Assembly (NCBI GenBank): GCA_002633005.1
Contig: NMRA01000029.1
Span: 1,274,086 to 1,338,085, forward strand
From: Phoronis australis
Taxonomy: Eukaryota; Animalia; Phoronida
Length of the DNA: 64,000 bases
Direction: 5' to 3'
Position 1 is the first letter of the stretch, and every line of letters starts with the position of its first letter. Made by a program: the position numbers and the translations under genes. The notes under the pieces were generated by a model, which had not been told where the DNA came from, searched no databases, and was given only the letters and a program-made list of their open reading frames with translations. Below, piece by piece: positions 4,683-61,878 of the stretch.

Positions 4683-4955
4683 GTCTCGATAAAGTCACAC
4701 AGCTTGAAATTGTAAGGAAAACTGAGACGACTATTGAAGTGAAATGGCAGTTCGCTCGGGGAAATCTCGATAAATACATTCTCACGTGTACTGCTACGAA
4801 AGACAATTCACAAAAACACTCGAAAGAAACTACCAAAACCACGGCTTTATGCACGGAACTTGAGCCCGACACCTCATTCAAGATCGAAGTCCTAACAGTT
4901 AAAGCCGGGTTCGACAGTGTAGTGAGCGATTTCGTCATTGAAAACACACTATTTG
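4683..4955 (+). CDS. Gene A exon: fibronectin type III domain #1 (first recognisable coding exon; true 5' end not found)
   Basis: Acceptor ctgtAG|GT at 4681-82 and donor TTTG|GTATGT at 4956; phase 1-1, 273 nt. Translation GLDKVTQLEIV..TTIEVKW..GNLDKYILTC..LCTELEPDTSFKIEVLT has the FN3 pattern (W, Y, L-x-P-x-T-x-F/Y). Confidence 0.85.
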
Positions 4956-5059
4956 GTATGTATGTTTATGAACAGTTTTCTCCGTCAATTGCATATTAAA
5001 CTAAGATTCGCAATCAAACGTTTGGGTTAATTGATGAAGATTAGGAATCAGTGATGACT

Positions 5060-5470
5060 CTTTCAACAGGCGTATCTAGTTTAAAGTTAAAGTCGCGGGG
5101 TTCACAACTGTCCACTGTTACGGAAGATGATAAATTGGCTGTAGCTGGTATTCCCAAATTCTCCTAAGAAACTGTACTAGCGCGACCTCTGTTGGGTAGT
5201 GTGTGAAATGCTCTCTACCAAGTTTTAGACAAGATGATTCTCACTCCACAATTAGCTAATTTTTTGCCAAGATCCAAGTGGCATTTTGGATATCGGAAAA
5301 ATTTCATCCCTGACCAATGAGCATTTCACTCACTACCCAACACTGGCCGCGCCAGAATGGTTTCACAGGAAGAGAGGTAGGACTTGAGACTGCCAGTTGA
5401 TCACCTTCCGTAGAAGGTGTCATTTGTGATAACGGCAACCTAAAGTTTTAACAAGGTGCTTCCCTTTGAA
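5060..5470. mobile_element. Foldback/MITE-like palindromic element in gene A intron
   Basis: Nested inverted arms: acggaagatgataaattggctgt pairs with actgccagttgatcaccttccgt, and ttgggtagtgtgtgaaatgctc pairs with gagcatttcactcactacccaa. Ends are approximate. Confidence 0.65.
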
Positions 5471-6229
5471 ATTTTTATACTTAGTCATGAATGGGTACTA
5501 TTTCCAAATCATTTTAGTTCACAAAGTGGAAACTTTAACTCTCTGTTCCAAGACTGTGTATTTGCTCTGTTTTTATGTAAGCTGCGCGCATTTTCTGCTT
5601 AGAATCGCTGTGTGCCTTACGAAGTTTTAAACGAAACACGAGCGCGGCTGGTTGCTCAAAGAATCTTTGGGTTTAGGGCCACGCATACTTCCAATGATTT
5701 GCTACCGAGTCTTCCTCAAAATTTACGTGTAACCTTGGTGCACCAGGGAACATGCTTGCTTGTTGCACCCGACGCCTTTAAATGGCCCATGTCAAGGCGG
5801 ACTACGCGCACTACTTTTAGGGAACAGAGCCTTGCTGTGGAAGTCATCATTGAATGCCAATAATGTGGGGAGAAACCTGTTTCCTTACATTGTTATTGTG
5901 TGTTGTAAAGACACTTTGCCAGTGAAGCATGCAGTAAACCCTCTTGTTCCAATTTCTGGTAGTTATTTTTCGATCACATTAGCAGTCAAGACTAACGCTC
6001 GAGCCCGACAAAAATGCTCAATACCATTCAGTGTTACTGAAGTTGCATCAAAAATGTTCCTTGCAAAACCACACGATTCAACAAACACAATCAACAGACA
6101 AACAGATGGGGTAACATGTTTAGTAAACAAGATATGCGAAAACAACACACGAATCCACAACTAGTCCACTACTTGGCGAACTGAAGCACCTACGGCAACA
6201 ATTTGAAATAATCCATTCACACTACAAAG

Positions 6230-8430
6230 AAACTTTATGAACACAATAAGTGTAAACAAGATACCAGCAAGACATGGAATGTGGTCAAGAATGCTTTCAA
6301 AACAACAGCTCTTACTACTAAATTACCAGACTATATAACAAAACATACATAAATATATTATATAAAACGTCAATAGCTCATGAATTTAAAAAGTTCTTAA
6401 TAATTATTGGCCCATCATTAGCTAAGCAAGTACCAGTCCAGGGGCTCTGTAAGGTTGATCATTTCTAATCCAATCTTAAGTGCCATTTACACCACAAAAG
6501 TTAACACGGATCAGCTGACACGGAACGAGATGTTCCTGTGTGTAAACGGAGCAATTTGACTCCGCAGTGACAACTTTAGCCACCCGCTTGTGAGGTAGAG
6601 CAATTTGCTCTCGAACATCTTGTTCCGTGTTAATTATATGCCTAAGTGTAAACGTCCACTTGACACCGATCCAGTTGCTCCGGGTCAGTTGCGCTGGATC
6701 AGAAGTTGATGTCTAAGCCGGACTTTACGCAAACAGAATATGAAATTCAAGCAGTGAATGAAACACTGGTTTAAAAACTGTGATATGTAGCACTGGAGAA
6801 GACAGTTTTTCGGGTCATCATAAAGCCACTCACTCATTGCCATCACCAATCAATTTATTTAATTACCTTATGACAAACAATCTCTTATATGAACGTCAAT
6901 GTGGTTTTCATCGATCGCGATCAACTGAATTTACAACACTCGAACAAAATGACAATGGACACTGCGATAAACTTGTCAGCAGTCTTCTTAGACTTTCAAA
7001 AGTTTTGACTCAATAGATCCCAATATCTTACTAGGTGAACTTTCATTTTATGGTATAACTGCATCCGGGCATTTATCCTACAAAGATATTTACTCATTCG
7101 ACAGCAGTATGTTTCATTTGAAATTTACTGTTCTGGCGCAGTGTCAGCTAACAATCAAGAGACACGCAGGCGATTCTATAGCTTCTTCTTTTATTCGAGT
7201 GCCGTTCGTACATAGACCAACCCGTAAACTGAAACAAACATAACTCCAAGCCGCTACCACGAAATATACTACAAAACCGTTCTTTACGCAAACCAAGAAA
7301 ATTTTCAGGTTTCGAAATGACATCGTCAGTTAAAATTTGCTCTTTAATATGAAAATACTAGATACAAAAGGAACATGATTTATACACAATTCTACCGTGA
7401 GCTCGCGACGCAAACTAGATTTCAAGTCACGCTAAACAGTTATGATTATATGAGCAAAAACAGACTGATTTCTAAATCCCGATCCCAAGGTCACAGCAAA
7501 CAACGCCAAAACCCCCGGCATGAATCACGAAGAAATGCAGCAAAGTAAATGAGGCGAAAATATTGAAACTACGGACACAAGAGAATGCAATACATAAACC
7601 AGAAATATAACAATAAGCAAAAAAGAACACTGCTCACATCATGAACACTGTGCAGTCTCAACGACAGTGAAGATCAATGACAAATGCCTGCGCTGTACAC
7701 AGATAGAAAATACGAATGACTAGAACTGGCGGGTAAAACACTTTTAAATGCCAGTACCACGTGGCGAGACCACGATCTGGGAGTATTTCGAAATATGTAC
7801 AACTAACAAAGTAATACTGCATATCATACATATTGGCAATATGGATAATTGCGTCTGCAGTAGCATTAACCCTCAGCAATCATCACAGGTGTACCCCAAA
7901 GACTTATTCTTGGTCCCCTCCTTTTTCTAATTACTTAAATTACCTCCACAAATCCACTTCTCTTGAGGCATTTATTTATGCTGATTATACATGTCTCACA
8001 CACACACACACTTTCGTCTAGAAAAGCAACATCAACGAAACTGAAATGAACAATAAACTACGAAACACAGTTATGAATGAACACTAATAATCACCAACTC
8101 GCACTATTTTGCACATACAAATCCAATACACAAATTATGAAAGGGTACCTTTGCTTGAAGAAACTCTTAATATATCTCGCTTGAAAACACATGGAACGCT
8201 TTCACACGAACAACTTTCACATTATTTTCAAAACAATTTTGTTTGCTATTACAACTGAAACAACAAACCAATTAAAAATTATCCTTCGCCAGATCTCCTA
8301 AAAAGCTTCATTGTTACTTATCGTAGGTACAGTCCTATACTCAAGAATCAATTTTACAAACCAAAAACAGCAACTCAATGTTTACGTTTTTACGTTCTTA
8401 GAATTATCAATGTAAATAAATAAAATATCC
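6230..8430 (+). mobile_element. Decayed non-LTR retrotransposon (CR1/L2-type) RT region, interrupted by insertions
   Basis: Frameshifted RT motifs: AHEFKKFLIIIGPSLAK (~6377), NNLLYERQCGFHRSRSTE (~6876), GVPQRLILGPLLFLI and FIYADYT (~7890-7990, degenerate YADD). A-rich end near 8415-8426. Confidence 0.75.
6478..6727. mobile_element. Short palindromic MITE nested in the LINE relic
   Basis: Inverted arms acacggaacgagatgttc (~6519) and gaacatcttgttccgtgt (~6613). Degenerate termini aagtgccatttacac and gtctaagccggactt. Confidence 0.55.
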
Positions 8431-8559
8431 CTTTCAGTTTAAGATACACACACTCACTTTCAAGATATTATATGAACCAAATTTTAGATACATATTCATT
8501 ATGCAATGACTAGCTGCTACTCCAGCTGTTATGCTAATGTTTGCCAACATAGACGCAAA

Positions 8560-8611
8560 CACTCGCAAGCACACACACATGCACACGCACACGCGCACGC
8601 GCAGGCGCACA
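8560..8611. repeat. (CA)n/(CACG)n microsatellite
   Basis: cacacacacatgcacacgcacacgcgcacgcgca seen directly. Confidence 0.8.
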
Positions 8612-9291: not shown

Positions 9292-9567
9292 ACTTGGGTA
9301 CCGTTTCCCATGTGGTCGTGAGTCAGCAAACGAACTCGTCTTTGGTTGTGTCTTGGACGCCTCCGCGAGGTACCGGATTGTCTTACACAGTTAGCTGCAA
9401 ACCCAATGGCAGTGATTCAGGGCCTTTGCAAGACATTGCACCACCTCTGACCACAGCAACTTGCAAAGGATTAACACCTGGAACATGGTACACAGTGAAC
9501 GTGATCGTTGCGAAAGCAGGATATAGCAATCAAGTTGCCAGCCATCGCGATGCCACCACAAAGACAA
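9292..9567 (+). CDS. Gene A exon: FN3 domain #2
   Basis: Acceptor ttttAG|AC and donor ACAA|GTAATT; phase 1-1, 276 nt. Peptide SSLVVSWTPPRGTGLSYTVSC..ATCKGLTPGTWYTVNV. Confidence 0.9.
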
Positions 9568-11047
9568 GTAATTTCTGTTTACTTTAGTTAAAACGTTCTA
9601 TACTAGGAACTAATAGATCATATGATATATTGGTTCCTAGTTCTATACAGGAAGACCTATCCAAAATATTGACCCAATTCTACTCAAAAGGAAGTAATGG
9701 TTGTTGATGCTTCCTAAATTAATACCGCAGGTCTCTGTGTTATCTTGGAGGTAAAATGTTCCGAATTAGTACTAAACCACTGGCCTGAATTTGGTACCCA
9801 GGTACATGTAACAAAGCGAATCGAACGCTGTATTTGGGTAACGGAAGAGAATGCAAAACGAGCACTTAGCCTTTTTGTTGAAACATTTGAATCTTTTTAT
9901 TGCTACATTTGGCTTGTGCTTGGAAACATGTTGATTTGCAGCAGAGTGACATGTAAACACCGAGCATGGTCTTTTCCAAACAAATTGTGTCGACTTTTAG
10001 GGAGACAACTGGTCTAAATCAAAAGTTGGTTTCGTAGATAGAACGCTGCTTGATAGCGCTATAATAATATTATTGAGGATTTCATTTACTAGCAAATAAG
10101 AAGTTGGCAGTAGCCCAAATTGTAGGTCACCTTCTACAAGAGCCAATGACTGAGAGTCAAAATGTGGAAGCCTGACTATGTACGGATTCTCAGCATATGG
10201 ATGGTTAATTGTCATCATAGGTAGAATGATCAACCAATAAACTAGTTTCATTAAACACTTTAAAGCCATCAAATTTTAGCATTGTTGCATTATTAACATA
10301 CAGCAAATAGGAAATCAGACAAAACTAAGATAAAAAACAACAGTGACTACACTTAAGTTAAAACGAAATGATCATCTTAAAAAAGAATAGAAAACTATTT
10401 TTCACTTTTGTTTAAACATCGGACGGTGGATAACGAATAGTATGTCTTGTACGTTTTGAATAATAACACCCACTATATCGGCCGTCTTTTTCATGTGCTT
10501 GTCGTACCTTCTTTTACAAACCACGTCGAAGCCCTTCCAATTTATTTGTGACAAAACCGATGTAAGAACAATTAAGAAGTTCCGCTCGCTCTCACAATCT
10601 GCATTTTAGTAAAACCCGAGTCCCGGGTGCTCCAAACCAGTACACATTCGTGCAAGTTGTTTTCTAGCAGAGACTAGCGTTAAACAGTCTGACGTTTGTG
10701 AACGGTCAAATACTAATTGCAAATTTCACCTTTTGAAGACCAGCGGAGACCATCGCAGAGTAGAAAATATTAACAATCGGACATGTACTGTACGGCTTCC
10801 GGGTAAACACATCAATTGACAAACGGGGAAAGTTGTAAACATGAATCTAATGGTGAACGTCGAAGATGTTTGTTAGTGTTGTAAAAAGCATTAAATTGTT
10901 CTTAGAAATATCAAAAATCAATAGGTCTGATTTACTTTTGTCACGATCATCATGCGTACAGCTTCAGTGCATGAGTCAACCAAACGTGGAATTTCTATGC
11001 CACTCTTCAAAGTGGGTCTATTGCCACTGACACATGAGGTCATTTAA

Positions 11048-14000
11048 GAGTGACTCCATATAAAAACCAACAGGTAGAGTCTATACCCAAAATCACTGAT
11101 TTTTTTGAAACTTAGCACATGATTTTGGTTTGTTGAGATGTAGAAAAACCTCACTTTTTAAGAATTTTCATTCATTATTTTTCTTTTTATGACCTGTACC
11201 TCCATTTTGCAACAAAATTAGGCGTCGAAGTAGGCATGTTTGAATGCATTTTACTAGCATGTTTGGTGAGGTAAAAACAAATGAATAATACGAACTGAAA
11301 GGGCAATGGCTGAATAATTTAACTGCATGACTTTCAAAATCCATTTTTAAATTTGTACGTTTTGAATTTGTGAGGCAAAAATGGCTATTTTTCAGGTTTT
11401 CACTGAAGCCATTTTTGACCAAATTTGGCACTCTATAGCAGCCATAACGCACCTTTCCTGAAATTGACTTTATAATAATTTGTTCAGTCATTCCTAACCT
11501 GATCATAATCTAAAATAAAAAATATTGCCTCTAATGTAGTTTTTGCGTACGAAGCATTACACGAACTGCACTTCGTCCTTTTGCATGTTCTCAATTGCCT
11601 CTGCTGCCAATAGGGGGCTCCTGGAACATATAATTAGCTTGCGAAACACGACATAAAAACCTTGTATTTAGGAGAAAAGGCAGACAGCATTATTAATTAC
11701 CATTCTCCGAAAACGGCATTGATGATTATTGCTTATTACAAAAAAATATGTACGTAAATCAACGGGCATGCATGCTTCTAAAAGATAGATGGCGCTGCTT
11801 TTGTTTACGTGGAGACTGAAGACGCATCTAGAATAAGAGCAGTAACACGAGGACCTTGCTATAATTCAAAACTTCGCGAGATATTGCTCTGCATTCTAAA
11901 TGAGAACCCGTGGTTTTGGATAAATTTTAGAGAGGTTCTAGTGTTACTGAGCTCACCCCTGCCTTGTTTTCTATCTGCCTTGTTCGTGCCACAGGCAAAG
12001 GAAGGCACCCAAGGTGGATATGCCCCCCTAGTGTTCAGTGCAAATAGTCATTGTAACTTTGGGTTCATATTGTAATGTCCCTGCTGGTTGCTAGAAATTT
12101 TAGTCGCCACCAGTCGCCAAAAACCTGATGTTCCACCCCCCCACACACTGGGCACCCTAACGCTGAGATAGTTGTGCCAGTGTGATCATCATTGGTATAA
12201 AAAGGTACTGACACATTCAGTCAATAGAAAATAATTCACGAGAGACAATTTTATTAATGACTCATTCATGACAGACATCAAGTAAACAGAAGTAACGTTC
12301 TCGACTTCATATATCACACATCTTTGACTGGTATGCTACAAAACTAGGCTGAACGTTGAGCTCATTTACCACTTCATTCAGTAAATCTGACGACATAACA
12401 GCATCTTCAGCAGAAATAGCATCGTCATAAACATTGCTGCAGACAACTTGGAAAAAATCCACCAATCTGCGGTTCACTTAACAGCACAGGTAAACACTTT
12501 CCCAGTGGGTTCTCGTAATGTTATCTCCATTTTGGCACTTCCGAGGGTGAACGTTTTTACCTGACTTATCTCCTTCATAGAATATGTTCGTCAGAATGTT
12601 CTTAACCTTTGCTGAAAATCTTGTTGACCTTTTACCTTTTTTCAATGCCTAACCTATTGCTTCAGGATTCGTCTCATCCAAATAGTACTCTGAGGCTTCC
12701 TCAAGTGACGCTCCGGTTCTTGCATCTGAAAGCATTTCTGACCACTGTCGTGCGATGTGGTCATACGTGTCTTCCCTCTGTAAATGTTCAGTGTGGTTAC
12801 CCACATCCAAATGCTGACCTGGTTCTGCGTCTGTAGCAAAAATTTCGAGTAACCTTGCTGGGTACAAGGGAACTTTTCATGTTGAGGCTCTTCACTAGAT
12901 ACAATGCCAACCTTAACTCTTGGTGTTGAAAATTCGCCATTCTAGAGATCTTAGTGTATTTTAGAGAAGTAGGTTTCCCATTTCCTCAGTATTTGTAAGA
13001 ACTTACTGTCACCTACATGGAATGATTTCCACACGCGAATTCCTTGGGTGGAATTGTGGAAATTTGGGAATGTGCTTATACCAGGAACTAAGTATTTTGG
13101 AAAAGACTTTGTTACATTGACTGAACATGCATACACATAGCATCCCTTCACACGACCAATGGAAAGTAATGCTTCTTTCAAATCCAGAAAGTTTATGATA
13201 TTGTTACCTTCGGCTACAAAGTACTTTGCATGTTGTTTGAGTGGAGCGATCTTGCGATCACAGAGATCCTTTCCATTCTGACTTTCACTAAATCATATCT
13301 CGAAACAGAAATGACGGTAGAATTTGACAAGGCTGTTACGTTCAGGAGGAGAGGAGCAGAGTGGTAACATCCAGCGTTACCTCACTCTTCCATGACTGGT
13401 CCTGTTCAGTCAGAAATTCACCGACTCTGGGAAGTACGAGTCCGTACTCTGGCACAGGCCTTGCTTTGTGAGGTAGTTTCTTGTATCTCAAATGTTCAGC
13501 GGTGTCTTTGACATAACTCACTAAAGCACAAAGCTTTTGTGATCGAATTTTTTGCAGAATAAACTCTAAAGGAACATGAAGGCCCATCGACATTGTCCGC
13601 CATTTTGTCTTTTTAAAATGCACTTGCTTCTCTCAAAACCAGTCATTACAGATATCAATTCTCACTCGTTTAATCTTAAAGGCATTTATTTCCATTTAAG
13701 AGTTCTACAGAGTGTTTAAATTAACCTGATAATGTAAAACAAATGAAAGAATACAAGAGGGTTACACGTACATTTTTTACAAGCTTAACCTCAACTGACT
13801 CCCTCAGTGGGCAAAGGTCATCGGGATCAGTTTTGATACTAGCCGCGTAATAAACCCGGAAAACATTTCCTTTTCATTTGAAAGAGTTAAGACTTGGTTT
13901 CTATAAATATTTAAAGCAGACTTCTTGCCTAAAAGTTTGTTCAAATGGTCTGTAAACTCTGCTCGTCATTTCCAAGCTATGAAAATAGACAGTTTTACAA

Positions 14001-14523
14001 GACAATTTTCACTAAAGTGCAAAGTTGAGGCAAGATTTTTTATTGCTTAGTCATCAAGACTAACTCTTTAACTGTATGCTCAAAACGTCACATAAGGCTA
14101 CAAGGTGTTTTATGGCAGTAAGAAGGTCACAAAAATGGCCACTAAAATTAGCCCCAAAAGTGGTCTGTGGATTATCTCCCCTGTCTAGCACAAAACTGTC
14201 AGATTTTAACAAATGGCACAGAATTATGCACAGTATACGGTGGTTATTTCAACCACCAAAATATAGCTTTTGATCTATTTTGTAACACACTAATTTTTGT
14301 TGCTGAAAACGTGCGATTTTTGAGACGGCTAATATGCCCAATTGTGCCAATTTGTGTTATCATGCCCCAGCGGCGAAATTAGGAGTCATTGGGTGCACAC
14401 AATTTGGCATTTGGGTTTTTGTTAGGGTACCTACCCATGTACAAAAAATAAAATGAAGTTGTTTTAAATTTTGACGTATAGACTGATTTTTGAAAATCTA
14501 CTGGTTTTTATATGGACTGCCTC
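11048..14523 (-). mobile_element. Sola3-like DNA transposon (decayed) with TTAA target-site duplication
   Basis: TTAA at 11044-47 and 14524-27. TIRs GAGTGACTCCATATAAAAACCA and (reverse complement) GAGGCAGTCCATATAAAAACCA give GAG...CTC termini. Minus-strand transposase relic RYD/SESQNGKDLCDRKIAPLKQHAKYFVAEGNNI..GISTFPNF..GIRVWK at ~13300-13000. Family name rests on termini, TSD and the GK-x-x-CD motif. Confidence 0.75.
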
Positions 14524-15096
14524 TTAAAGTGTAATCGACATAGGAGTACCCGCCAATCTCATCCTTATCCGTTACTTAGTATATATAAGAGTACAAAGTA
14601 ACAAAATGCAACATTAGTTTTATATTTTTTGGAGCTGTGTAGGCCTACCCAAAGTCGGTGACATTAATGAAACATCAAATAAAAAGTGGCATGTTGTGTA
14701 TGCCGAACATTAGATTTACCTGCTTTTCTCGTGTTCTGACTATTGATACCACGAGTGCAGTCTTCTGTGAAACAGACGATGATGTCGAACATTGAAACGA
14801 ATGCTCCCTAGACCATGCTTTGATTTCGGTACTCGCCGGAGTGATTCAACGTTTGGCATTTCTGCTTGTCAATACTTGAATATTAGCGTATCTGTATAGT
14901 AACAGAATCTTTTGCAAAAGACAAAAGGCTTTGCTACGACCACGTAATGTTCTTAAAGAATCAGCATGTAGATGTCTAACTTTCGGAACTTGAATGATAC
15001 TAAATCTTTTCAGAAGTGACTCTTACGAGACCTTTACTAACACTTTTTAAAATGCTTCGCAATGACCGGCTAGTTTTGAAAACATTGTAATTCCAG

Positions 15097-15369
15097 AATT
15101 GAATGCTGTCTCCGGCATTACCGTGAGTAATCAAACGAACACGTCGTTAGTTGTGTCTTGGAAACCTCTGCGAGGCAATGGCTTGTCTTACACACTTAAC
15201 TGCAAACCCGATGGCAAGGCATCAGATACGCCAGACGCTGCTATTTCAACGACGACAGCGACTTGTCGACGATTGACGCCTGGAACCTGGTATACAGTGA
15301 TAATAGGCACTGCGAAGCCAGGTTGGGACAAGGAATATGCCAGCCTTCATGATAGCAGCACGAAGACAA
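15097..15369 (+). CDS. Gene A exon: FN3 domain #3
   Basis: Acceptor ttccAG|AA and donor ACAA|GTACTA; phase 1-1, 273 nt. Peptide TSLVVSWKPLRGNGLSYTLNC..ATCRRLTPGTWYTV. Confidence 0.88.
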
Positions 15370-15928
15370 GTACTATCTGTTCACTATTAATGTTCCCTGT
15401 GATGGTTTGGTTAGAGTTCTTTTAACGAATTCACCAACTTCAATTTAATAGAGAGTAAGCGTTATTTGACGCATTCCTTACGAAGAATATCCGCGTAAAG
15501 GTTAATATGTGTATGGACATCTCTAGGAATTAACAGTACACCGTGTTTAACTTTGCTGACTGCACTATGCTTTAATGTGAAAAAGTGTCAGATTTTATTG
15601 TTACAGGTTTTTGTTATAAAAGTTAGTTTAAAACCAAGCGTCGTATTCTTCTTACAAAAGTGCTAAACACTGAACGTACATGTATTTCTGAGGCTAAAAC
15701 CATTTGCATTTGTTATGAAAAATTCTAGGCTCTGATTTTTAAATACGTTTTGCCAAAGATTGATCTGTAATGAATGCTAGTAAAATTTTTTTACCCTATT
15801 TATAGGCATTTTAAAAAACATTTTTTTTGAAAAACTTATGTTTTATGAGGATCTGAACATTTTGAAAAACTGAAACCAATTTTAGAAATCTCATAATTCG
15901 CCAAAACCCCAATTTTCAACGAAAAATG

Positions 15929-16030
15929 GAAGACCATTTTTGTACAAACACCCGAGACCCCGCCTTGATATCAGCATATGAAAAATTGAAGACCAATTTT
16001 TAAAAACATCCCATACCCCGCCTTGAGCAT
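15929..16030. repeat. Two imperfect tandem copies of a ~59-bp unit
   Basis: gaagaccatttt..aaaca..ccccgccttga occurs twice in succession. Confidence 0.6.
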
Positions 16031-16143
16031 GGCCTAGTCAACGTGTTACTTCGGTACTTGAAAAATACCAAACCTTCGCGAGCCTTTTACTAACATCAAG
16101 TGCTTTGCTACGACTAGCTACTTCTAAAACATTGTGATTCTAG

Positions 16144-16419
16144 AGTTGAATGCTGTCTCCGACATCACCGTGAGTCAGCGAACAGGCACGTCCTTGGTAG
16201 TGTCGTGGAAGCCTCCGCGAGGTAACGGATTGTCTTACACAATTAAATGTAAACCCGATGGCAGTGACCGAGGGATTTTACAAAACATTGCTCCTTCAAT
16301 GACGACAGCCACTTGCCGACAATTAATTCCTGGAACCTGGTACACTGTGGCGATAAGCATAACAAAGGCAGGATGGGACGAAGAATCTGTCAGCCTTCGT
16401 GATGGGAGCACAAAGACAA
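16144..16419 (+). CDS. Gene A exon: FN3 domain #4
   Basis: Acceptor ttctAG|AG and donor ACAA|GTACTA; phase 1-1, 276 nt. Peptide TSLVVSWKPPRGNGLSYTIKC..ATCRQLIPGTWYTV. Confidence 0.88.
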
Positions 16420-18086
16420 GTACTATATCTTTACCTTAAATGTTGCATAAAATAATTTCGGTAGGCTTTTGAATACATTGACCAGCTTCTTAAAAGTGAA
16501 GTACCGAATCATAGCCAAGAGTAATTTCCACATACATTTATAACCCTCTTTCACGAAAAAGCTGATAAAAAGAAGGCTTGGGTACGCTACAAAATATTAG
16601 GATTTCAAACCAAGTCAATACAAATTCTTGTTGAATTCCATAGAAAATAATAGTCTTTTGGAAAAGCTGTCTTTTTAGAAACACTTAGCAAAAAGAAGGA
16701 GCATTCACAGCAGAACAAATTTTGTATGATCCAGATGCTCAAAATAAAATGCCAAAACTGCACTCCGGTTTTCTGGCTTAGCGTTTCGTTTTCATTTTAT
16801 GTAACTTCAAGAATTTTTCATTAGAATCGTATAAGTCCTATTACCTCAGAGCTTCTCAAGCGAATTTAGAACATTTAAATACAATTCCTTACAGACTGTT
16901 GGATAACAGCGTATAAAGCATAACGGCAGTTAACTATTACTCTGTGAACAAGTACATTTTGGATTACTCAATTTTGAGTATAAACTCGAGATTTCGAGTT
17001 CAGACTCGGAACGAAAGACGTTAGTGACCATATCTTCTTTTGGAACCTCCAAGACACTGTTATCAGCCCCCGTCGTTTCTGACTGTAGTCGCTGTGTGCT
17101 GTTAGACAGCAATTCCGAGGTTCACAGCGTCATACACATCGCAAACACATCTCCTCGTAGTACGGTGTCAATGTTGATCTCGGTGACATGTAGCAGTCTG
17201 ACATCTTCTTTCCTCTATCATGTCTGTCGTCTTTTGCTGAACCTCTGGGTGTCTGGCATGACTGGTCGTTCTTGTGACATTTTTCCTGACCACTGAGTAC
17301 GCGTTGTGTACACCTCGTGTACTTCAAATCTTTGCAGAGTTACACTCAGCTGCAAACATTTCGGGTTTAAGGGCTGCTGGCGCCGTCTCATGTTCCATTC
17401 TTTCATCCCCCATCTGGAGTTCAGCCTTTCTAACCTCTGCAGCCCGGGCCTCAGTCTCCCAGACTAGTCGTCGTTCCGTTGCCGCAGCAGGATCAGTCAC
17501 GTGGGCTACTATCCTCTCCTCAGCCTCGCAAGCTTGTTTTCTCTGTTCAGCTGCAGCACCAGTATAACAGCGTAGAAACAAATGCGTTGTCAGCAAACTC
17601 CTAAAAATTTTGAACGCTGAATCGGAAAACATCGCAACCATATCCAAAATTACGTGAGATGTTACAGCTGACACTGAACAGATGTTGTGTCTTGGAAACT
17701 GCATTCTTAGGATGGTATTCAGGGTAGAGTTCAGAAATGAGAACACGTTATTTTGACTAGTCTCGCCACTAGACAGCTACTAAACTTTTTTCGACCGAAT
17801 ACAATATATTTTATGGATTTTAACTTCTTTGTTAATGGAGCTTTTGAAAAGCAAACAAGGGGTTTACGTCAACTCATGATCGCTTTGTTATTGCTGTAGT
17901 CAGACGCTCGCCAGTCGAATTGTAAGAAACAAAATTGCAGGCGTTCGGGTACCCATTGCACCAGACGTGCGCATGCCGCTAAGGTGGACCCATTGCATTG
18001 ATCAACATGGTCATTTTTATGCTTTTTTAAAATATACATGCAGTTAAAACGGAGCTGGGGAGATAGAGGCACGAGTCCAGAGTCTA

Positions 18087-18914
18087 TTAATGTGCCCAGT
18101 GGTTTTGGAACCCACGACCTTGATTGAAAAGGAAGCGGACACTTATTTCAAATATCCACCTTAGACTACGTATTGATTTCATCAGGTGTTGGTGTGAGTC
18201 AGCACTTGGAAGACTAACCTTATTTTTCATTGTTCGGATCTCTTTTAGATGGCCGATCCAATGTTTGTTTACAAACATCTTTTCGATAAAACTACCATAC
18301 AAAAAGCTGCTGGTTATTAATAACACGTATCCAAATCCTTCACTTTCATGAGAAGTATGTAATGTTTTGGAAAGTTCACAAGCCCCTAGCTTATGTTTTG
18401 GGAACTACAAGTATTTCTTTATCGGACATCTTTTNAATATGTTGTAGAGTGACTGTGTGAATATTGGGACTGCGTCATTTATGTTACTTTTGTTAAGTAT
18501 ATCAGTCCAGTTGAATGTGGTTATGTCAGAGCGCAATTTGTCCATGTTAATGAGGTTGTAATTCCAGATCTTCTTCATAATGTCTGGTTCTTTAGGTGGG
18601 CAGTTGAGTGTGAATGTTGTTTCTATAACGTGGTGGTCTGAGTCACCAATGGGAGGCCTTACAGAAGTGGATTCAATTAATCCGAGATTGTTTGTTATAC
18701 ATAAATCAAGGCAAGAATGTGAATACTCTGTTAAACGTGTCTGCTCGTTTATTAGTTGTATACAGTCATTTGTGAGGAGAATATCGAATAATTCGAGACT
18801 GGCTTGGTTGTCATTGTCTTCAGAGTACCAAGTACTATTTCTTGCGTTAAAATCCCCGTTGATAACAATCGTTTTATTACTTTGAGAGAGTTCTTCGGAC
18901 ATCTCTAAGTACAA
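18087..18914 (-). mobile_element. LINE ORF2 fragment: apurinic-like endonuclease C-terminal half (CR1-type)
   Basis: INGDFNA, NEQTR, SCLDLCIT and IGDSDHHVI motifs, then KIWNY..DKLRSDI..FNW. The frame breaks near the N at 18436. Confidence 0.85.
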
Positions 18915-20992: not shown

Positions 20993-21268
20993 GGTTGATT
21001 GCTGTGTCTAACATTGTCGTGAGTCAACGAACAAGCACATCGCTAACTGTGGCTTGGACGCCTGCGAGAGGCTTCGGATTGTCTTACACAGTTAGCTGCA
21101 GACCCGATGGCAATGATTCAGAAACGGTGGTAGACGTTGCTCCTTCGCTCACCTTGGCGACTTGCCAAAAACTGACGCCTGGAACTTTGTTCACCGTAAC
21201 GATAACCACTATGAAGGCTCACTGGGAGAAGGTGTCTGCCAGCATTTACGATAACACCACGAAGACAG
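20993..21268 (+). CDS. Gene A exon: FN3 domain #5
   Basis: Pyrimidine tract ttttcttctAG|GG and donor ACAG|GTAGTT; phase 1-1, 276 nt. Peptide TSLTVAWTPARGFGLSYTVSC..ATCQKLTPGTLFTVTI. Confidence 0.9.
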
Positions 21269-23402: not shown

Positions 23403-23609
23403 TTAAGAGTGCAGCAAGCTACTACGGAAAGCGCAAAATACATGCACATATTTACATAGATTGACTCGTATAGTACCATCACTTGTTGACATCAATATAT
23501 TGAACTCGGGATATCTATCACAGCTTAGAATTAAATGATACTTGTCTTCGGTAACATTGAGGCATAATGGACACACTCTGTTTGCCCTGGGTATACTCAA
23601 ACTTGCCAA
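23403..23609 (-). mobile_element. LINE ORF2 C-terminal cysteine-rich relic
   Basis: IPRANRVCPLCLNVTEDKYHLILSCDRY matches the R-x-C-x2-C..ED-x-x-H..C-x2-Y knuckle at the 3' end of many LINE ORF2s. Confidence 0.65.
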
Positions 23610-23851
23610 CCGACAAAATATTTGGCTTTTTCACACACGTTGAAAGTATCATATTATCAAATTCTATTGTGATTTTTCACGCGACATAGCCACTAAAAAG
23701 AAATGAAAAGGCTTGACTAACACATCAAAAACGATAACAAGACTTCGAAAGAGTTCTATCTAAGTCTTTCTAATTTCTTTTGAAAACTTCTCCACTCTGT
23801 GCACATTCGCACAGCCTGCTTCCTACAAATAACTCAAACGTTCTTAAAAAC

Positions 23852-24068
23852 CATGTGTGCAGCCAGCCTAAAAATGGGGGGGCTCGAATTTTTGAGATTG
23901 TCGACCTTACGGGGTACGCGCAGAGATGTGAATTGTGCATTCGTTTGTAGTGGACTTTTATTCTCTACGTTTTCGGACTTTTTGTTTCTCCGAGGCGTAC
24001 CTTTTTGCTAAATAGGGGGGAAGGGGCTCCTTCGAGTCCCCAGAGCCCCTCCACTGGGTTCCCTCATG
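23852..24068 (+). mobile_element. MITE family X, copy 1
   Basis: Begins catgtgtgcagccagcctaaaaatggggggg ctcgaattttt and ends gggttccctcatg. Homologous to 24170-24388 (opposite strand) and 56338-56598. Confidence 0.65.
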
Positions 24069-41781: not shown

Positions 41782-41782
41782 N

Positions 41783-47776: not shown

Positions 47777-50700
47777 TTACATGTGCGTGTCCTGATGTGC
47801 CAACAAGACTTGCTTTTGACGTCGGAACCTGAGAGGTCTCTTAAGAAATGCCGTTACAAATAACATCACGATTATTGTCTTTGCTGGTTGCAGACAACAT
47901 ACATTAAAAACTAATCCAACCAGAAATGCTACAAGCCAATTCAAACTCCGTTGGTAACCATATTGTAAACCGTACAAAATAATAATAAATGATGAGCCTA
48001 AACACACAACGGCGAGGAGAAACCACGCGATTATAACAATCCACCAAGGCAGAACACAACAATCTTTATCCTGCTTCTTTAAATCGTAGGTAATATCTGG
48101 AGAGATGTCTTTTTGGGATGCGATAGATTTGTGTGTACTATCATCACTTTGTCCTCTGTCAGAATTTTCCGTTGCGTGGATTCTATTTTTGCTTTTTGCC
48201 TCGACACAGTGAGTACTGTCGGTTACGTTATCATTACAAAAAACGACACCCGTCGTCCCTGTAGTTCGTTGTATCAGGGATTCTTGTCTTTCAATGCTGA
48301 AAGTATGTGACCCCAAATCTTCTGTCAAAACCTCAGAACTTTCAACCTCAATCCCATCTCTAATTGTGCAAACAGACGCGACTTTGTTTTCCTCACACAC
48401 GGGTTCGTCCAGAATGTGCGTACAGCTCAGTTCTTCCAACTGTCTCGTTATGTTTGCCTTTAACCTGGGTTTCGCAAATCGAAACAAAGACACAATCGCC
48501 ACCTCGAAAGGTAACACCATTATACACGAGTTAATCCCAAACAATATCATAGCCCAGTTGCTTACTTGCTTATCCACCGATTCGATGTGTGTTGACTCGG
48601 CCTCTATTTCAAAGCATGCAATGTCAACGAGCATCGTCGTCAACAAAACCATGCAAGCGCAAGATAACCGCTGAACGCAAGTGAACTGGCTTTCCACTGG
48701 CCTCCCAAGAATGCTATACCACAAGTGCTCGTCGTGGATTTCACGTTTCATTTCGATGATGTAATTATTTTTAAATGATGTCATTTCTTTATGCGTCGCT
48801 GCCGTAAGCTCGCGAATGTTCTTTCGGTTGCCTCTATCAGTTGACAGCCAGTCGTTGCAAATGAAATACCACGAATCTTTGTTGTGTACGTCTAGCACGC
48901 AGATGCCATGCAAATACCAAGCTGATTTTCCTTCAGGATTGTCCTGCCAAATGCGTACCTTTTTCAGCGTCCCTAGACATGTCTGTGTAGCTAAAACGAA
49001 CGCATGCTCCGTGCCTCGGACCAGTTTGGTATTGCTGGTTAAAAGGTGGGACAAGCTCACACCCTTGCTCCCTATCAAAGAGATGTAGATGTTTGGTGTA
49101 GTCGTGGAATTTCGTTGCCATCCGGGGAGGACGATAGTCACGTAGAAATGACTGTAGTCGGTTTCATTGTCTTCAAGATAAACGGTTGTGTTTATTCGTT
49201 CGCAGTTCCTGTCATTACGCCAAGCGAAAGGCAGAACGAGAAGGTACAGGAACCACACAACAGACACGACGACAACAACGACAGTGTTGTCTTTAACAGT
49301 ACTGAACAGTAGTTGAATTCTTTTAAAATACAACGGGTTAGGCAAATTAAAACAACCGGCTGCTACTGCAGTCAGATGATTACACTTGCAGACTAGAGTG
49401 CTCGAAGAAGTTTCCCGCGACGGCCAGCAACCGTAGTTTGACCACATGTCTTCTTTAATGTCAAAGTACTGACATTTAATTGTTTGTGCTGTATATTTAA
49501 TTTCTACAGAGGTTGCATTGGAATGTTTGCCATATAAGCAACGACTATTATTTTTGCCTAGTGACAGTATTAGTTCTACAGAAAAAGAATAAAGCAGGTG
49601 TTCAGAAAATGCTGTATCTTTGTCAGCATTCAGTTGCAGCCAAACCGTCCAATTGTTCGATGACGAAATATTTTCATTGAAGAGTGGTGCGTATTCCGTG
49701 CCGTCTTTAATCACTTGTCTCGCAATGCAACTAATTTTCAGGTCAAGATCTTGTGCATTTAGAAACTGGATCCTGACAGCATCAAATCTGCTGACAGTGA
49801 ATGTATTGGTCAGTGTTGGATAAGCTGGCGATCCGCATAAAGAGTGAATATAATGGTCAACAGAGGACACCTCGTCAGACTCTAACACACGTATATTATA
49901 AAGGAAGAGAGCAACGGGTTTATGCCGGTTAGAATTCACTTCTAAGACTCGATCGGTTTCCAATGTTCGGTATTCGACTGACATCACAGGCGTAGTAACA
50001 TTTTCAGAACCTTTCGACCAATGATAAGGGTTTTTGCGAATCCAAACTGATTTTGTGAGGATATCAAGCTCGCCTGCCTCGGGTCCAGCACGAATTGCAT
50101 TTCCATCGACTAACTGAAGAGATCCGTGTTGAAAAGTAACCAAACTTCCTAGAGAACCAGTCTTTTTCAAAACTATATTTATTTCCACATTATCTGCCGT
50201 TATCTGCGTGGCTTCCTCTCCGGAAATCTTGGTCCTTGCAATACCAGATGCAATAACGTCTATTATATCTGTAGCAATTCTCACGATGGATTTGTCATAC
50301 ATTTTTCGATTTTGACCGACGACTTCAAAAGAAGATAGCATTATGTCACTAGTCACGTTTAGAGCCTGTTTGTATGTTTCATATTCAATGTCAGCTGTCT
50401 TGACGTCGTTGCTTTTCAGGGTTTTGTTCAGCAAATTAAGCGCAGTTCTCGCTGCATTCTCGGTCTTTGTGTACTCCTTGTTTAAGGATGCCAGAGCAAA
50501 TAAGGCTCGACCGCCCTTCACGACAGACGACGGAAGTTTGTCTAACCCAACTAGAAGTTCGTAACGAGCTTGTTCAAATTCACTATCTTCGTCATTTGTT
50601 TCGTCTATAAAACTAACAAGATGATTAATTAAATGTAGCGCTTCCTTAAACCTTCCGTACTTAAAATGTGTCTTCAACGGGCCGTCCACTGTGAGATGTT

Positions 50701-51327
50701 TAACATACTCTCGAACACTGACGCCATACTGAATTTCCGGAAAGTTAAATTGCTTAGACAACACAGATCCAAACATGTCTACAGCGCCTACACGAATATA
50801 GTTGCCATTGCACTTTATCTTTGAAAATTGTCCTTGGAAAATAGCATTATGGGACTGTCCTAGAAACAAGGTATACGCATTCTTGCAAACAACGGAATAA
50901 AACTTGTAGTAGGCAACACTTCCGTTGAAATTCCAACCAAAACCGGAGCAATTGATCGAAAATTGAATAAAGTATTCTAGGTGCTCTTCTTTGTGAATGT
51001 CGCAATTTCCTTTAACCGGTCCATAGTTCTTGACGGCAATTGTAACGTTACCGCCAGCATTGGCCGAGACAATGGCAGCCGTTATAACATAATCAGTTTC
51101 TGGTTTCAACGAACTACCATCGACTTCGAAGATATTCATTTCCTTTCCTGAAGTACTGAACACCACTCCTGTCGTGCCCAAACGTTTGTTAGATATTTTC
51201 CATTCGAAAACTAGTGGCGTAATATGACTACAGTGGACACAGGTAGCTTCAAGCTTGAACTTGCCATCAGCACGAGAGTATCGTCTTCCTTCGCCAACAC
51301 AGTTCCTCCGACAAACAATCTTAACAC
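47777..51327 (-). CDS. Gene B terminal exon: polycystin-1/PKDREJ-like core (partial REJ, GAIN/GPS, TM1, PLAT, TM2-5); no channel domain
   Basis: Phase-1 acceptor ttctcAG at 51329-28. The frame extends the listed ORF upstream with GVKIVCRRNC..LEATCVHC..FEW, homologous to gene A SVEVICVRNC..LVASCNNC..YDW. GPS CQYF..WSNYGC..CKCNHLTAV; PLAT FYVTIVLPGW..NIYISLIG..VRIWQDN..WYL..FICNDWLS; HLWYSILGRPVESQFTCVQRLSC; LPWW..; ..QPAK. Confidence 0.93.
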
Positions 51328-52057: not shown

Positions 52058-52336
52058 TTGTTTTGATCCCACGTTGGAGAGTAGTTACAAGGATTCCCTC
52101 GCTAGTAACTTCATCAAATCCTTTCTTCATTGTTGTGACCGATATTGTGTACTCGCTATTGGGTAGAAGGTCTTTACAGCGTGCCCACAAACTGGCAGTG
52201 AAGTAATCTTTCTTGTTTCTCGTATTTACACAGGTTAACCTGTATCTGTCAACGTTTCCGTCGGCACGAGACCATGAAACCTTAATGGAATCGGACCTGA
52301 TTTCCTTCACGGTGATGTCTTTCACTTTGGCAAGAC
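52058..52336 (-). CDS. Gene B exon: FN3 domain (membrane-proximal)
   Basis: Acceptor ctttcAG|GT and donor ACAA|GTTAGC; an alternative phase-1 donor would end the exon at 52073. Peptide DSIKVSWSRADGNVDRYRLTC..RCKDLLPNSEYTISVTTMKKGF. Confidence 0.85.
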
Positions 52337-54910: not shown

Positions 54911-55159
54911 CTGTTTTGACATCAATCTCCATTTTTATCGGCTGGAAATGCTCATGGATTGTATAAACTGCGATCGTGTAGACACTGCCCGAATCAAGTT
55001 GCTCACAGTTTGCACGGGTGGCTAATGGGCCTAAAACCACATTTCCTTTGGGGCACAAAACCTCCAAACCCTCTCCAATTGCGTTTTCGGGTAAGCTCCA
55101 ACTCAGTACAACCGAATCTTTCAAGATGTCGGAATCCAGGTTAAAAACAGCTTTCAGAC
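54911..55159 (-). CDS. Gene B exon: FN3 domain
   Basis: Acceptor cttgtAG|GT and donor ACAG|GTAAAG; phase 1-1, 249 nt. Peptide DSVVLSWSLP..LEVLC..ANCEQLDSGSVYTIAVYT. Confidence 0.85.
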
Positions 55160-55477: not shown

Positions 55478-55735
55478 CCTGACATTTTGGAACACTGCAC
55501 AATACTCTTTCGTCACTGCCTTCTGGGAAGCACCAAACCCCATTGACCACGGTATCATTGCGGAGTACCTGAGGATTGCGGCAGGAATTTTCACTGACTT
55601 TCGTTGCAATTACCTTCATGTACAAGTTGGCACTGTGCAATGTTTTCCACGGACGACACATGCGGCCGTCTTTTACGCGGTTCACGTGGCCGGTGTAGTA
55701 GCCGTCCAACGGTCCCCAGCATTTGGTAAAATCCG
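55478..55735 (-). CDS. Gene B exon: kringle domain
   Basis: Acceptor gttttAG|CG and donor CAGG|GTGAGA; phase 1-1, 258 nt. KCWGPLDGYYTGHVN..DGRMCRPW..ENSCRNP..GVWCF..VLCSVPKC has all six kringle cysteines and the Y-x-G, C-x-x-W, CRNP and WC motifs. Confidence 0.9.
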
Positions 55736-56337
55736 CTAAAACGAAAAGGTTGCGAACAAATAAATTAAGTGATTATAATTTCAGAAACTGGCAATGATAT
55801 ACGCTCCTTTGAATTTACTTAGGCACCTGAACAAAGAAATAAATAACCCACAGTGCAAAAGTTCCATCGGACACATTTTGACAAAATGTAATAGGTTACT
55901 GTTTGCAAAACTTAGAAGTTTATATTTTCAAGACGGTCATGTCAAAACCAATAACTACTTCTGTGGTACTATGGGATCCATTACATAGTTGGACAGGAAA
56001 TTGGTGAAATATTCCAAAAAAGAATTGTTTGGCATTTCTTTCGCACAGTAAAGCCCCCCCCCCAGTCGTTGACAATGGCGCTGCTGTTTTTTGACAAGTA
56101 AGAAGATTCACAAAGTGTGTTCCTAGTAAATATGCAGATGCATCATCTTCAGGAGGTTGGCAAGGATCCCAGCTAGGAAAACAGCGCTCATATTGTGGGC
56201 TTTCGCGTTTAACTCGCAATTCAACGTCAAATCAAGCACCGAAAACAACTAAAGGTTGACCTTTCATTTACAACGTAAGTCAGGGGTTACATTTGGAAGT
56301 CTGATTGGGAACCTGGATAAAGGATTGCCGTACTAAC

Positions 56338-59169: not shown

Positions 59170-60600
59170 TATTGAAACTAGCTCATGACGAGCTGACAAC
59201 ACCTATCTCTTAAACCAGAGCATTAAAACTTCCAAGTTCCCTAGTTTGTGGAAACTTGCAAATGTATCTCCTTTACACAAAGGCTGTGCTACTGAAAATG
59301 TAAACAATTACAGGCCAATTTCAATTTTGCCGGTCTTACATGTATCTAAATTGTTAGAGAAGCATGTTCACAATACCCTGTCTTCCCTTTCGACTGAGCA
59401 TGAGTCAGTAGTTGCCTCTCAGTCTGGTTTCAGAAGTGACCACTACTGTGAAACTGCCCTCATTAATGTTAACGGCTGGGGTCAGGCTGTGGATAGCAGT
59501 CACAATGTTGGTGTAGTATTTTTGGAATTTAAAAAAGCTTTTGATCTTGTTGGTCACAATATACTTTTAAGCAAAATGTTAATTCACAAGATAGGCAAGG
59601 TTTCGCTAGACGGATTTCAATGATATCTGTCAGAGAGGTGCCAGGTTGTAGGCCTATCCCTTGGTGGACATCTGTCTGAAACCCAAGGTATCACACATGG
59701 TGTCTCTCTTGGACCTCTGTTATTTCTATAAATGATCTCTCTTTAGTCTGCGAAAACAGGGTTGACATGTATGCAGATGATACTAATTTGTCCGTTGTGG
59801 CAAACTCGCTGATCGCTGTAAGGAACAGACTCCAGTCTGATTTGGATAAAGTTGCTACCTGGTGTGATGATAACAAAATGGTAATTAATGCTGAAAAAAC
59901 AAAATGCACGAGTATTGCCTCAGAGCTACGTCATGATAGAAGTTACCTTGAACTTAATCTTACTATTTCGGATGTACAGCTCAAACAGGATGACAGTGAA
60001 AAGTTATTGAGTGTTACTGTAGACAAGACCATCAGTTGATCTAGCCCTGTTACTGGGACTCTGTCCGAAATTAGACAGCGTCTTTGTCTTCTCAACATTT
60101 CTTCCCACAGAAGGGCGTCTCCAATATTTCAGCGCTTGTATATTGCCTCTGTTCCTTTATTGTAGTACAGTGAGATCAGGATGTAATGCAAAACTGGTTT
60201 CCTCTCTATTGAAGGCTCAGAAGGAGGCGGCCAGACTTGTTCTTTGTGTACCTTTTGGCACTCCATCAATTCAAAAGTTTAACAGACTGGGGTGGCTTCC
60301 ATTCACAAATATTTTATATATAGGTGTTTGTGTATGATGTACAAGGGTTTTCAGAATAATGTACCAGTTTATTTATCCTGTAACCTTGTACTTGTTCGAA
60401 ATACATGTAGCTACCAAATCAGGACACGATTTTCTACTTCAAACAATTTGGTTTTGCCTAAACACAGAACTTCGTTTTACTTTTGTCCATCTTTATTCAA
60501 GCCATTCAACAACAGATCAACTTGCCAAATAATCTAAAGGAAGCTGACCGTTATGATGATTTCACACTCAAACTCATTAGTTGCCTGTGATCGTCATACT
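59170..60600 (+). mobile_element. Decayed LINE (CR1/L2-type) reverse transcriptase, antisense in a gene B intron
   Basis: FPSLWKLANVSPLHKG, NYRPISILP, SKLLEK, QSGFR, VFLEFKKAFDLVGH, MYADDT, NKMVINAEKTK, LFLYCSTV..QKEAARLV; several stops and frameshifts. Confidence 0.92.
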
Positions 60601-61024: not shown

Positions 61025-61135
61025 GAAGTACCCTCGCGCTAGTTCAAGGATTAGATTTCAGCACGGCCCGATTTGTTGTGGCAGTACCCTCGCGCTGGTT
61101 AAGGGATTAGAGTTCACCAGGGCCCGATTTGTTAC
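61025..61135. repeat. Two tandem copies of a ~56-bp unit
   Basis: agtaccctcgcgct(a/g)gtt..ggattaga.ttca.ca.ggcccgatttgtt occurs twice. Confidence 0.8.
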
Positions 61136-61260
61136 AGTGACTACAAATTTTTCTAGGTTTGCACTTGAATTAAACGGTCCGTTGTAAGGAGCCAGGTCTC
61201 ATCAAATTGCCACCAGTATACATGTACTCTTTCGGCAAAACTACGAGTGTGGATACGTAC

Positions 61261-61464
61261 CCGAAACACGCTTTGCCTGGATCATTACATCACAAACTTC
61301 CAAGGTACCTGCTGGAAAAAGAATCATAGTCAAGTAACGACCGATTTCTTGTTTTCGGCATTCGGCGCTTATTGACTTTCTTTCACCGGGAACTTCTGGC
61401 AAGATGAAGTCGGCACACAGTGCATCGTTGGTGATGGTTGACACTTGTATTTGTACATTGATAC
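61261..61464 (-). CDS. Gene B exon: C-terminal part of an F-type lectin/F5-8 type C-like domain
   Basis: Acceptor tttcttccAG|GT and donor TCGG|GTACGT; phase 1-1, 204 nt. INVQIQV..ALCA..AEC..IGRYLTMIL..TLEVCDVMI matches the C..C..GRYV-x-I..L-x-LCEV-x-V end of the fucolectin fold. Confidence 0.75.
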
Positions 61465-61709
61465 CTGGAAGAAATAACGACTAGCTGTGCTTCCTACTGC
61501 TACGATATTGAGCGCTACGTCGGCCGCTGAAAATGACTCACTTCGACATAGGGCGAAATCAGAATGAGAAGCCTTATTAAGCCACGTAACGAGAGTCATT
61601 CCGACGACGGTTTAACTTTATAAATAAAAAAACGGTTACATTGTATTATTTCATGTCATATTTGGTAAGAGTCGAAATTAAATTGAAAACGTGCTGTACC
61701 AGTCATTAC

Positions 61710-61769
61710 CTAAGCGGCTCCCATTATGCATGTATTTAACTGTAACGGTGATTTCGTCGAAAAGCATAA
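61710..61769 (-). CDS. Gene B short exon (60 nt)
   Basis: Strong acceptor tcctttttttctttgtcacAG and donor TTAG|GTAATG; phase 1-1. MLFDEITVTVKYMHNGSRLG joins in frame to the 61464 exon. Confidence 0.55.
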   Translation of the reverse strand, partial: LCFSTKSPLQLNTCIMGAA

Positions 61770-61823
61770 CTGTGACAAAGAAAAAAAGGACGTAATCTTC
61801 ATAGCATGACAAGTTCGAGCGAC

Positions 61824-61878
61824 CAGTAGATGCATTGGTGAATATAATGCCAAATGCGATAACGGAGTATATTCTCAT
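61824..61878 (-). CDS. Gene B putative first coding exon: signal peptide
   Basis: gccATG context; MRIYSVIAFGIIFTNAST has an n-h-c signal-like layout. The donor G|GTCGCT is weak, and the 54-nt intron is in frame and stop-free, so it may be retained. Confidence 0.45.

Follow-up and report, generated by a model that had tools for sequence, protein, structure and literature searches.

An intronless five-helix polycystin-1-like core in two Phoronis australis genes, with kringle and FN3 exons upstream

Known polycystin-1 relatives and the Phoronis locus

The channel of polycystin-1 (PC1) is formed by transmembrane helices (TM) 6 to 11, which cryo-electron microscopy sets apart from a peripheral TM1-5 unit (PMC7728438, PMC8357825). 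Here, we analyzed a 64,000-nucleotide stretch of the Phoronis australis genome (contig NMRA01000029.1, positions 1,274,086 to 1,338,085 of the forward strand), hereafter called the window, with a GC content of about 39% and a CpG observed/expected ratio of 0.86. It carries two convergent paralogs, gene A on the plus strand and gene B on the minus strand. They code for the five-helix first half of a polycystin-1-like protein, and no TM6-11 channel half was found in the window. A sequence-only reading of this DNA had proposed a sensor family with swapped extracellular heads on a constant GAIN-PLAT-five-helix core, of which only two members are seen in the window.

Several described systems resemble this arrangement in part. 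PKD1L2-like proteins (vertebrate PKD1L2 and PKD1L3 and mollusc, amphioxus, and hemichordate proteins) have in common with A and B the REJ domain, GAIN/GPS, TM1, PLAT, and TM2-5, with 25 to 37% identity over the best-aligned segments. Compared to them, A and B lack the TOP domain, TM6-11, and the long C-terminal tail, retain only the second half of REJ, carry their core on one exon, and have a kringle and multiple FN3 domains in their heads. The ray-finned-fish "partial pkd1l3" genes, like A and B, encode GPS and PLAT without the channel domain and were read as genes being lost (PMC5318412). Sea urchin SpREJ1-10 form a paralog family with variable heads and 0 to 11 helices (six predicted in SpREJ7), but these heads consist of C-type lectin, EGF, SUEL, PKD, and WSC modules, and the accessible part of that account mentions neither an FN3 nor a kringle head (PMC1934368). 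Amphioxus and hemichordate proteins (P0070, P0064, P0047, P0061, and P0059) also carry shuffled modules on a REJ-GPS-PLAT core, including F5/8 type C domains, one FN3 (P0070), and half-REJ starts; however, unlike A and B, they retain the channel half, and kringles and FN3 arrays are missing from all of them. Mammalian PKDREJ shares with the A and B cores an intronless polycystin-1-like coding region (PMC1934368) but retains 11 helices, and our trees leave its kinship with the cores unsettled. Finally, adhesion G protein-coupled receptors (GPCRs) likewise join GAIN to variable shuffled heads, whereas in the A and B cores no seven-helix GPCR domain was found after GAIN, its place being taken by five helices and an intracellular PLAT.

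The A/B architecture was not described in the literature on polycystins that we searched (kringle or FN3 heads, five-helix forms, shuffling, mollusc or annelid expansion, and retroposed copies), a search of titles and abstract openings with subscription journals mostly outside it. What is new here is the kringle head together with an intronless, conserved five-helix core retained in two old paralogs. The sequence-only reading had recognized the five-helix core without stressing the missing channel half and the missing introns, and the shuffled heads on which it dwelt proved less surprising than it held.

A five-helix core without the channel half

The gene A core occupies a single exon of 3719 nucleotides (nt) at 28497 to 32215 on the plus strand, and the gene B core a single exon of 3551 nt at 47777 to 51327 on the minus strand. 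Both open with a phase 1 acceptor, as had been noted before, match REJ, GPS, and PLAT in Pfam, and contain five hydrophobic segments. Each begins with a half-REJ, followed by GAIN/GPS (about 30572 to 30688 in A and 49477 to 49361 in B), TM1, PLAT directly after TM1 (about 30908 to 31219 in A and 49141 to 48833 in B), TM2-5, and a stop codon; AATAAA sites lie at 32214, 32375, and 32385 for gene A (plus strand) and at 47312 for gene B (minus strand). The GPS matches before TM1 have E values of 6e-9 and 6e-6 in the two cores, and the His-Leu/Thr (HL/T) GPS motif is retained in both. REJ is partial, covering profile positions 204 to 407 of 452 in A (41.5 bits against a Pfam cut-off of 25) and 208 to 340 in B (17.9 bits, under that cut-off), and a partial REJ is accepted as a family feature for SpREJ8/9 and PKD1L2 (PMC1934368). 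With a partial REJ, GPS/GAIN, PLAT, and TM2-5, the cores belong to the polycystin-1/REJ family in the broad sense (Gunaratne 2007); they are not channel-forming 11-helix PKD1-like proteins in the strict sense (England 2017).

No channel family was detected by Pfam in either core, tblastn of full-length PKD1L2 proteins matched the window only as far as TM5, and a channel-half profile run against the six frames of the window gave a best E value of 1.5. Stop codons fall 11 and 21 residues past TM5 in the two cores, and no C-terminal tail with a coiled coil or G-protein motif was found there. An AlphaFold model of the B core, built from a 60-row alignment (predicted local distance difference test score [pLDDT], 75), had PC1 as its best structural match and superposed on residues 3064 to 3624 of the human protein with Z 21.2 and a root-mean-square deviation of 3.7 over 273 residues; matches to adhesion GPCR GAIN domains reached Z 16 to 18. 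The core is thus predicted to adopt a GAIN fold and a PC1-like fold of five helices and PLAT, and in this model the matched part of PC1 is its peripheral TM1-5 unit. The genes stop where, in the structure, the peripheral TM1-5 unit gives way to the TM6-11 channel unit. This would suit a split polycystin, in which, within the membrane, the five-helix half docks on a separately encoded six-helix PKD1- or PKD2-type subunit and serves a channel as an interchangeable sensor. In polycystin-1, the channel half is functional without TM1-5 (PMC8357825), and conservation between A and B is as high in TM4-5 (47%) as in PLAT. However, no gene for a channel half was found in the window, and tails of 11 and 21 residues are too short for the PKD2-binding coiled coil (PMC9672506), so we consider such docking quite unlikely.

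The two cores share 32% identity over 1226 columns and were sisters in all trees, with full support (Shimodaira-Hasegawa-like approximate likelihood ratio test [SH-aLRT], 100) and a long stem (0.69 to 0.79). A placement of both with mollusc PKD1L2 was given up, as its SH-aLRT support was 87 in one tree and 4 in another; only the pairing of A with B holds. Identity between A and B is 44 to 48% in GPS-TM1, PLAT, TM2-3, and TM4-5 but only 24 to 29% in the ectodomain and loop. This selective conservation in the sequences argues for a kept function, with the membrane unit appearing to be a remnant under constraint. England et al. proposed that the fish "partial pkd1l3" genes are decaying, transcribed polycystin remnants, and the same fate for A and B would agree with the loss of the channel half, the long stem branch, low expression, a dead FN3 exon and a partial lectin-like domain in the heads, and antisense RNA over the start of A's core. 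Against it stand two open frames of 1182 and 1238 codons that both end at TM5 even at this degree of divergence, conservation that is roughly twofold higher in the membrane unit than elsewhere, and the retention of family-invariant residues, and we regard decay as highly improbable.

Cores that end after TM5 are also found among relatives. Of 141 relatives with TM4-5, 124 have a channel, 15 end within 150 residues after TM5 without a channel match, and 2 are unclear. The 15 include fish, frog, scallop, octopus, shrimp, hemichordate, and amphioxus entries; the gene models of some of them may be incomplete, and two reach into TM6. They sit elsewhere than A and B in the trees, and channel loss therefore looks independent. 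Five fish and frog entries named PKD1L2 (P0007, P0030, P0053, P0055, and P0107) end just after TM5 and group beside PKD1L3, which suggests that "partial pkd1l3" is an old, retained five-helix gene, although two 11-helix entries fall into the same group in one tree. A protein atlas search with the homologue P0008 gave REJ-plus-PLAT clusters for which no channel family is listed. All eight abalone PKD1-like genes, by comparison, are reported to have 11 helices in a survey aimed at channels (PMC12980990). Among metagenome loci with TM4-5, 62 of 73 carry channel sequence downstream, and the other 11 end at most 677 bases from the contig end.

Exon-built heads and their RNA joins

Upstream of its core, gene A has six intact FN3 exons on the plus strand (Pfam fn3 E values of 2e-8 to 6.5e-14), in agreement with the earlier count of at least six. 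They measure 273, 276, 273, 276, 276, and 267 nt and have AG..GT ends and phase 1-1 throughout. Exon 1 (4683 to 4955; Pfam 3.6e-9) is presumably linked to gene A; exon 2 (9292 to 9567), recognized by Pfam and its splice sites, is joined in RNA to exon 3 (15097 to 15369), which, like exon 4 (16144 to 16419), has RNA joins on both sides. Exon 5 (20993 to 21268) has an upstream RNA join and no downstream one listed, and exon 6 (27952 to 28218; Pfam 1.9e-8) has sense reads with no join listed. Exons 2 to 5 are 56 to 68% identical among themselves and 22 to 33% identical to the remaining FN3 domains, and exon 1 is nearest to the second FN3 of gene B (37%). A decayed FN3 copy with a stop and frameshifts lies at 19023 to 19265 on the plus strand (tblastn E value, 2.5e-7; 74% nucleotide identity to exon 2 over 126 nt) and is bypassed by the RNA reads joining 16419 to 20993. 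Head swapping alone, as proposed earlier, therefore does not account for gene A: four of its six FN3 exons are tandem duplicates accompanied by a dead copy, so the head arose partly by exon duplication. A candidate signal-peptide exon with a phase 1 donor at 29 to 92 (plus strand) contains the sole start codon upstream of exon 1 that passed our screen. Within the introns of A, there are a broken long interspersed nuclear element (LINE) fragment at 18408 to 18995 (minus strand) and, between exons 5 and 6, a 208-N assembly gap (26185 to 26392). A retroelement-like fragment in two 1.09-kb copies, 98.6% identical, flanks this gap (25092 to 27807) and is probably an assembly artefact.

The gene B model joins exons of 55, 60, 204, 258, 249, 279, and 3551 nt into 4656 nt that encode 1551 residues without an internal stop, and its head exons have AG..GT ends and phase 1-1. 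Adjacent to the core on the minus strand is its second FN3 exon (52058 to 52336, 279 nt; Pfam 4.3e-11, 43.3 bits), preceded by a divergent FN3 exon (54911 to 55159, 249 nt) that scores 19.3 bits (1.3e-3), under the Pfam cut-off of 25, and by the kringle exon (55478 to 55735, 258 nt). All three have RNA joins on both sides. The kringle falls short of its Pfam cut-off (29 bits against 34.3) and matches the hepatocyte growth factor (HGF) and prothrombin kringles in the PDB (prothrombin E value, 1.8e-7). The kringle and the two FN3 modules of the sequence-only reading thus stood, one FN3 scoring below the cut-off, whereas its lectin-like part shrank to a weak, partial domain. Next upstream, the 204-nt exon (61261 to 61464), with a downstream RNA join, resembles the C-terminal end of F5/8 type C or fucolectin-like domains. 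The match, to a profile that we built from relatives, covers positions 115 to 158 of 168 and was the best in the six frames of the window (E value, 0.033); Pfam gave no match for this piece, which is spread over two exons and reached a pLDDT of 42 in a single-sequence fold. Judged from these likenesses, it represents at most the last quarter of such a domain, and no C-type lectin is present in the genes. All 8 intact FN3 exons and the kringle exon are symmetric phase 1-1 units, as claimed, while the lectin-like piece, which spans two exons, is no single-exon module.

The 5' end of gene B consists of a candidate 60-nt exon (61710 to 61769, minus strand; phase 1-1, in frame, with good splice sites) and a candidate first exon of 55 nt (61824 to 61878, minus strand), which looks like a signal peptide but has a weak donor and failed our signal-plus-donor screen. 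Neither is seen among the joins listed, and they are not needed to explain the read depth in their bin. An open reading frame of 103 codons just upstream of the kringle exon (55923 to 56231, minus strand) is faintly similar to the terminal part of trypsin-type protease domains; it was rejected as a protease exon because the match has an E value of only 0.84 and spliced reads skip it. Pfam analysis of a selection of 141 further short open reading frames around both heads added no module and gave 3 chance-level matches. An intron of B contains a broken LINE fragment (59189 to 60334, plus strand), the LINE pieces of the window being endonuclease and reverse transcriptase. Between the two genes, at 40209 to 43354, a single N at 41782 separates two 1.57-kb copies that are 95.8% identical; this is probably a haplotype duplication where contigs were joined.

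RNA evidence came from raw-read runs (X1 to X3 and, for gene B, also X4) that carry the same species label and no tissue label, with about one-fifth of each run read; joins were listed from 3 reads upward, and statements on gene B refer to the joins listed. Four of the six B joins were seen on the right strand (reads in X1/X2): 61261 to 55735 (7/5), 55478 to 55159 (13/13), 54911 to 52336 (10/4), and 52058 to 51327 (2/4), and none was found in X3 or X4. For the last of these, which leads into the core, both X1 reads show their mates in the opposite orientation. The reading frame of the B model and its four inner joins are thus confirmed, leaving its two small 5' exons without a listed join, and the possibility that the kringle and FN3 exons belong to transcripts separate from the core is ruled out for gene B by spliced reads at each of the joins that link the kringle, both FN3 exons, and the core. 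Sense depth over the B core is continuous at 3 to 13x in X1 and X2 through the stop and about 2x in the 3' untranslated bin towards the AATAAA at 47312; no onward join past the stop is among those listed. The RNA comparison for gene A extended from exon 2 to the start of the core, with exon 1 at 4683 and the 3' end of the gene outside it. Three of its five testable joins were seen (X1/X2), namely, 9567 to 15097 (3/2), 15369 to 16144 (5/3), and 16419 to 20993 (7/4), so that FN3 exons 2 to 5 are spliced together; none was found in X3. Exon 6 and the first 650 nt of the core have a sense depth of 2 to 3x, about half that of exons 2 to 5. In X1 and X2, though not in X3, antisense RNA of about 3x covers 27826 to 29149, a region that includes exon 6 and the beginning of the core, and five molecules end at 28018 in X2.

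Heads were compared in 71 of 166 relatives, picked for long N-termini or tree position and scanned with Pfam (threshold of 1e-6 for 49 of the 71, at which a weak kringle could be missed). They carry PKD, LRR, WSC, C-type lectin, SUEL, CUB, LDLa, Frizzled, and Sushi modules as well as EGF, TSP1, laminin G, pentraxin, fibrinogen, and F5/8 domains. Variable heads are therefore ordinary in this family, and the narrow set of modules that had been ascribed to polycystin-1 ectodomains fails for invertebrate relatives. FN3 was found in 1 of the 71, the amphioxus protein P0070, which retains its channel, and a kringle in none; the best phmmer match of the window's kringle to all 166 relatives had an E value of 0.39. 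None of 77 candidates for longer proteins with A-type FN3 qualified, which is weak evidence, and a negative result from our own FN3 profile (166 relatives and 80 loci) was discarded as insensitive since it missed the P0070 FN3 found by Pfam.

Origin and possible role of the two genes

The introns of relatives are lost in A and B, in which the core is one exon of 3.72 or 3.55 kb. SpREJ genes have 20 to 52 exons, and mammalian PKDREJ is intronless and testis-specific (PMC1934368). For comparison, we used metagenome loci, of which 80 of 238 were kept as a redundant and distant set (33 of the 80 do not span both GPS and PLAT). GPS and PLAT lie on split exons in 30 of the 47 loci covering both; the remaining 17 are single open reading frames and are probably transcript assemblies, because several are tree twins of split loci. 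A first metagenome scan had found no relatives in 591 pattern matches, and in the second, which gave the 238, none lay near the cores in a tree of 33. The 80 loci (L001 to L080) hold numerous 11-helix PKD1-like paralogs whose introns are few in number and conserved, on contigs that are apparently animal host DNA or RNA. A retroposed origin would be the simplest reading of the core; with the two cores only 32% identical, a poly(A) tract or a target-site duplication would hardly be expected to persist.

The common core thus bears different phase 1-1 heads, as had been proposed, but "swapped" is too strong a word for them, since both end in FN3. Because FN3 directly precedes the core in both genes, their ancestor was probably FN3 plus core; A probably multiplied one exon, and B additionally has the kringle and the lectin-like fragment. 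In such a history, a core free of introns, probably retroposed and by then truncated, would have landed behind an FN3 exon and then been duplicated, after which tandem exon duplication would have expanded the head of A, B also having its kringle and lectin-like fragment. REJ has itself been modeled as FN3-like domains (PMC3677617), and FN3 exons would accordingly lengthen a stalk of similar folds.

With confidence a little above even, we regard A and B not as channels but as self-cleaving surface receptors that use the FN3 or kringle-FN3 heads they present to adhere or to sense ligands. Autoproteolysis would take place at the retained His-Leu/Thr motif, and PLAT would serve lipid binding and trafficking, as it does in PC1 (PMC9672506). 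The head would attach to cells, to matrix, or to a partner, and it may also be shed. Output would come not from a pore within the protein but from this head, whether released or still tethered; a distinct PKD2-type channel or an adjoining cell could be its target. A soluble N-terminal fragment of PC1 can activate polycystin channels (PMC7728438).

Several points weigh against this view of the genes and their history. The stalk-agonist route proposed for PC1 requires the TOP domain and the pore loop (PMC9672506), and as A and B lack both, along with the C-terminal tail that is likewise proposed to take part in PC1 signaling, their signaling cannot copy PC1 directly. The ratio of nonsynonymous to synonymous substitution rates (dN/dS) among the duplicated FN3 exons of A, 0.39 to 0.65, fits relaxed constraint as well as ligand-driven change. 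A mid-REJ start is also found in relatives P0059, P0039, and P0061 (profile position 194 to 205) and is therefore no evidence for a truncated retrocopy. Finally, the two joins of gene A that lead from head to core, 21268 to 27952 and 28218 to 28497, are not among the RNA joins of at least 3 reads, and the first of them spans the 208-N gap. Gene A could thus be mismodeled, with FN3 exons 1 to 5 coming from another transcript or a misjoined scaffold piece and the core having a short or different head, a question separate from that of function. The listing of three upstream joins and neither core-adjoining one, and the near-identical copies flanking the gap between exons 5 and 6, speak for such an error. 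However, strand, frame, and phase are the same throughout, reads for exons 2 to 6 and for the core occur in the same pair of runs and not in a third, fewer than 3 junction reads are plausible at the depth of 2 to 3x seen on exon 6 and the core, and no alternative join from exon 5 is listed. Mismodeling is consequently unlikely, if still worth bearing in mind, and the full FN3-to-core architecture of gene A is likely.

By analogy to sea urchin REJ1, A and B might instead be gamete-recognition receptors, a role that the sequence-only reading had raised. The REJ/GPS architecture, the fairly high FN3 dN/dS, the intronless, testis-specific mammalian PKDREJ (PMC1934368), and reads for both genes in X1 and X2 with none in a third run are consistent with it. 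Yet these runs come without tissue labels, the genes have no C-type lectin, and their lectin-like piece is only part of a domain, which makes a gamete role doubtful.

Beyond the receptor reading of A and B, we put forward tentatively, as a possibility and not a probable one, that the half of polycystin-1 made up of TM1-5 and PLAT can stand alone as a receptor and was released from the channel on several occasions in animals. In Phoronis, a retroposed copy would have captured and duplicated phase 1-1 exons (FN3 and kringle), giving lineage-specific five-helix GAIN receptors with their own signaling route. A and B argue against channel-less pkd1-like genes being mere decay. The channel half works without TM1-5 (PMC8357825), which raises the question of what the peripheral five-helix unit does; expressed, conserved natural genes that keep this unit alone isolate it for testing.

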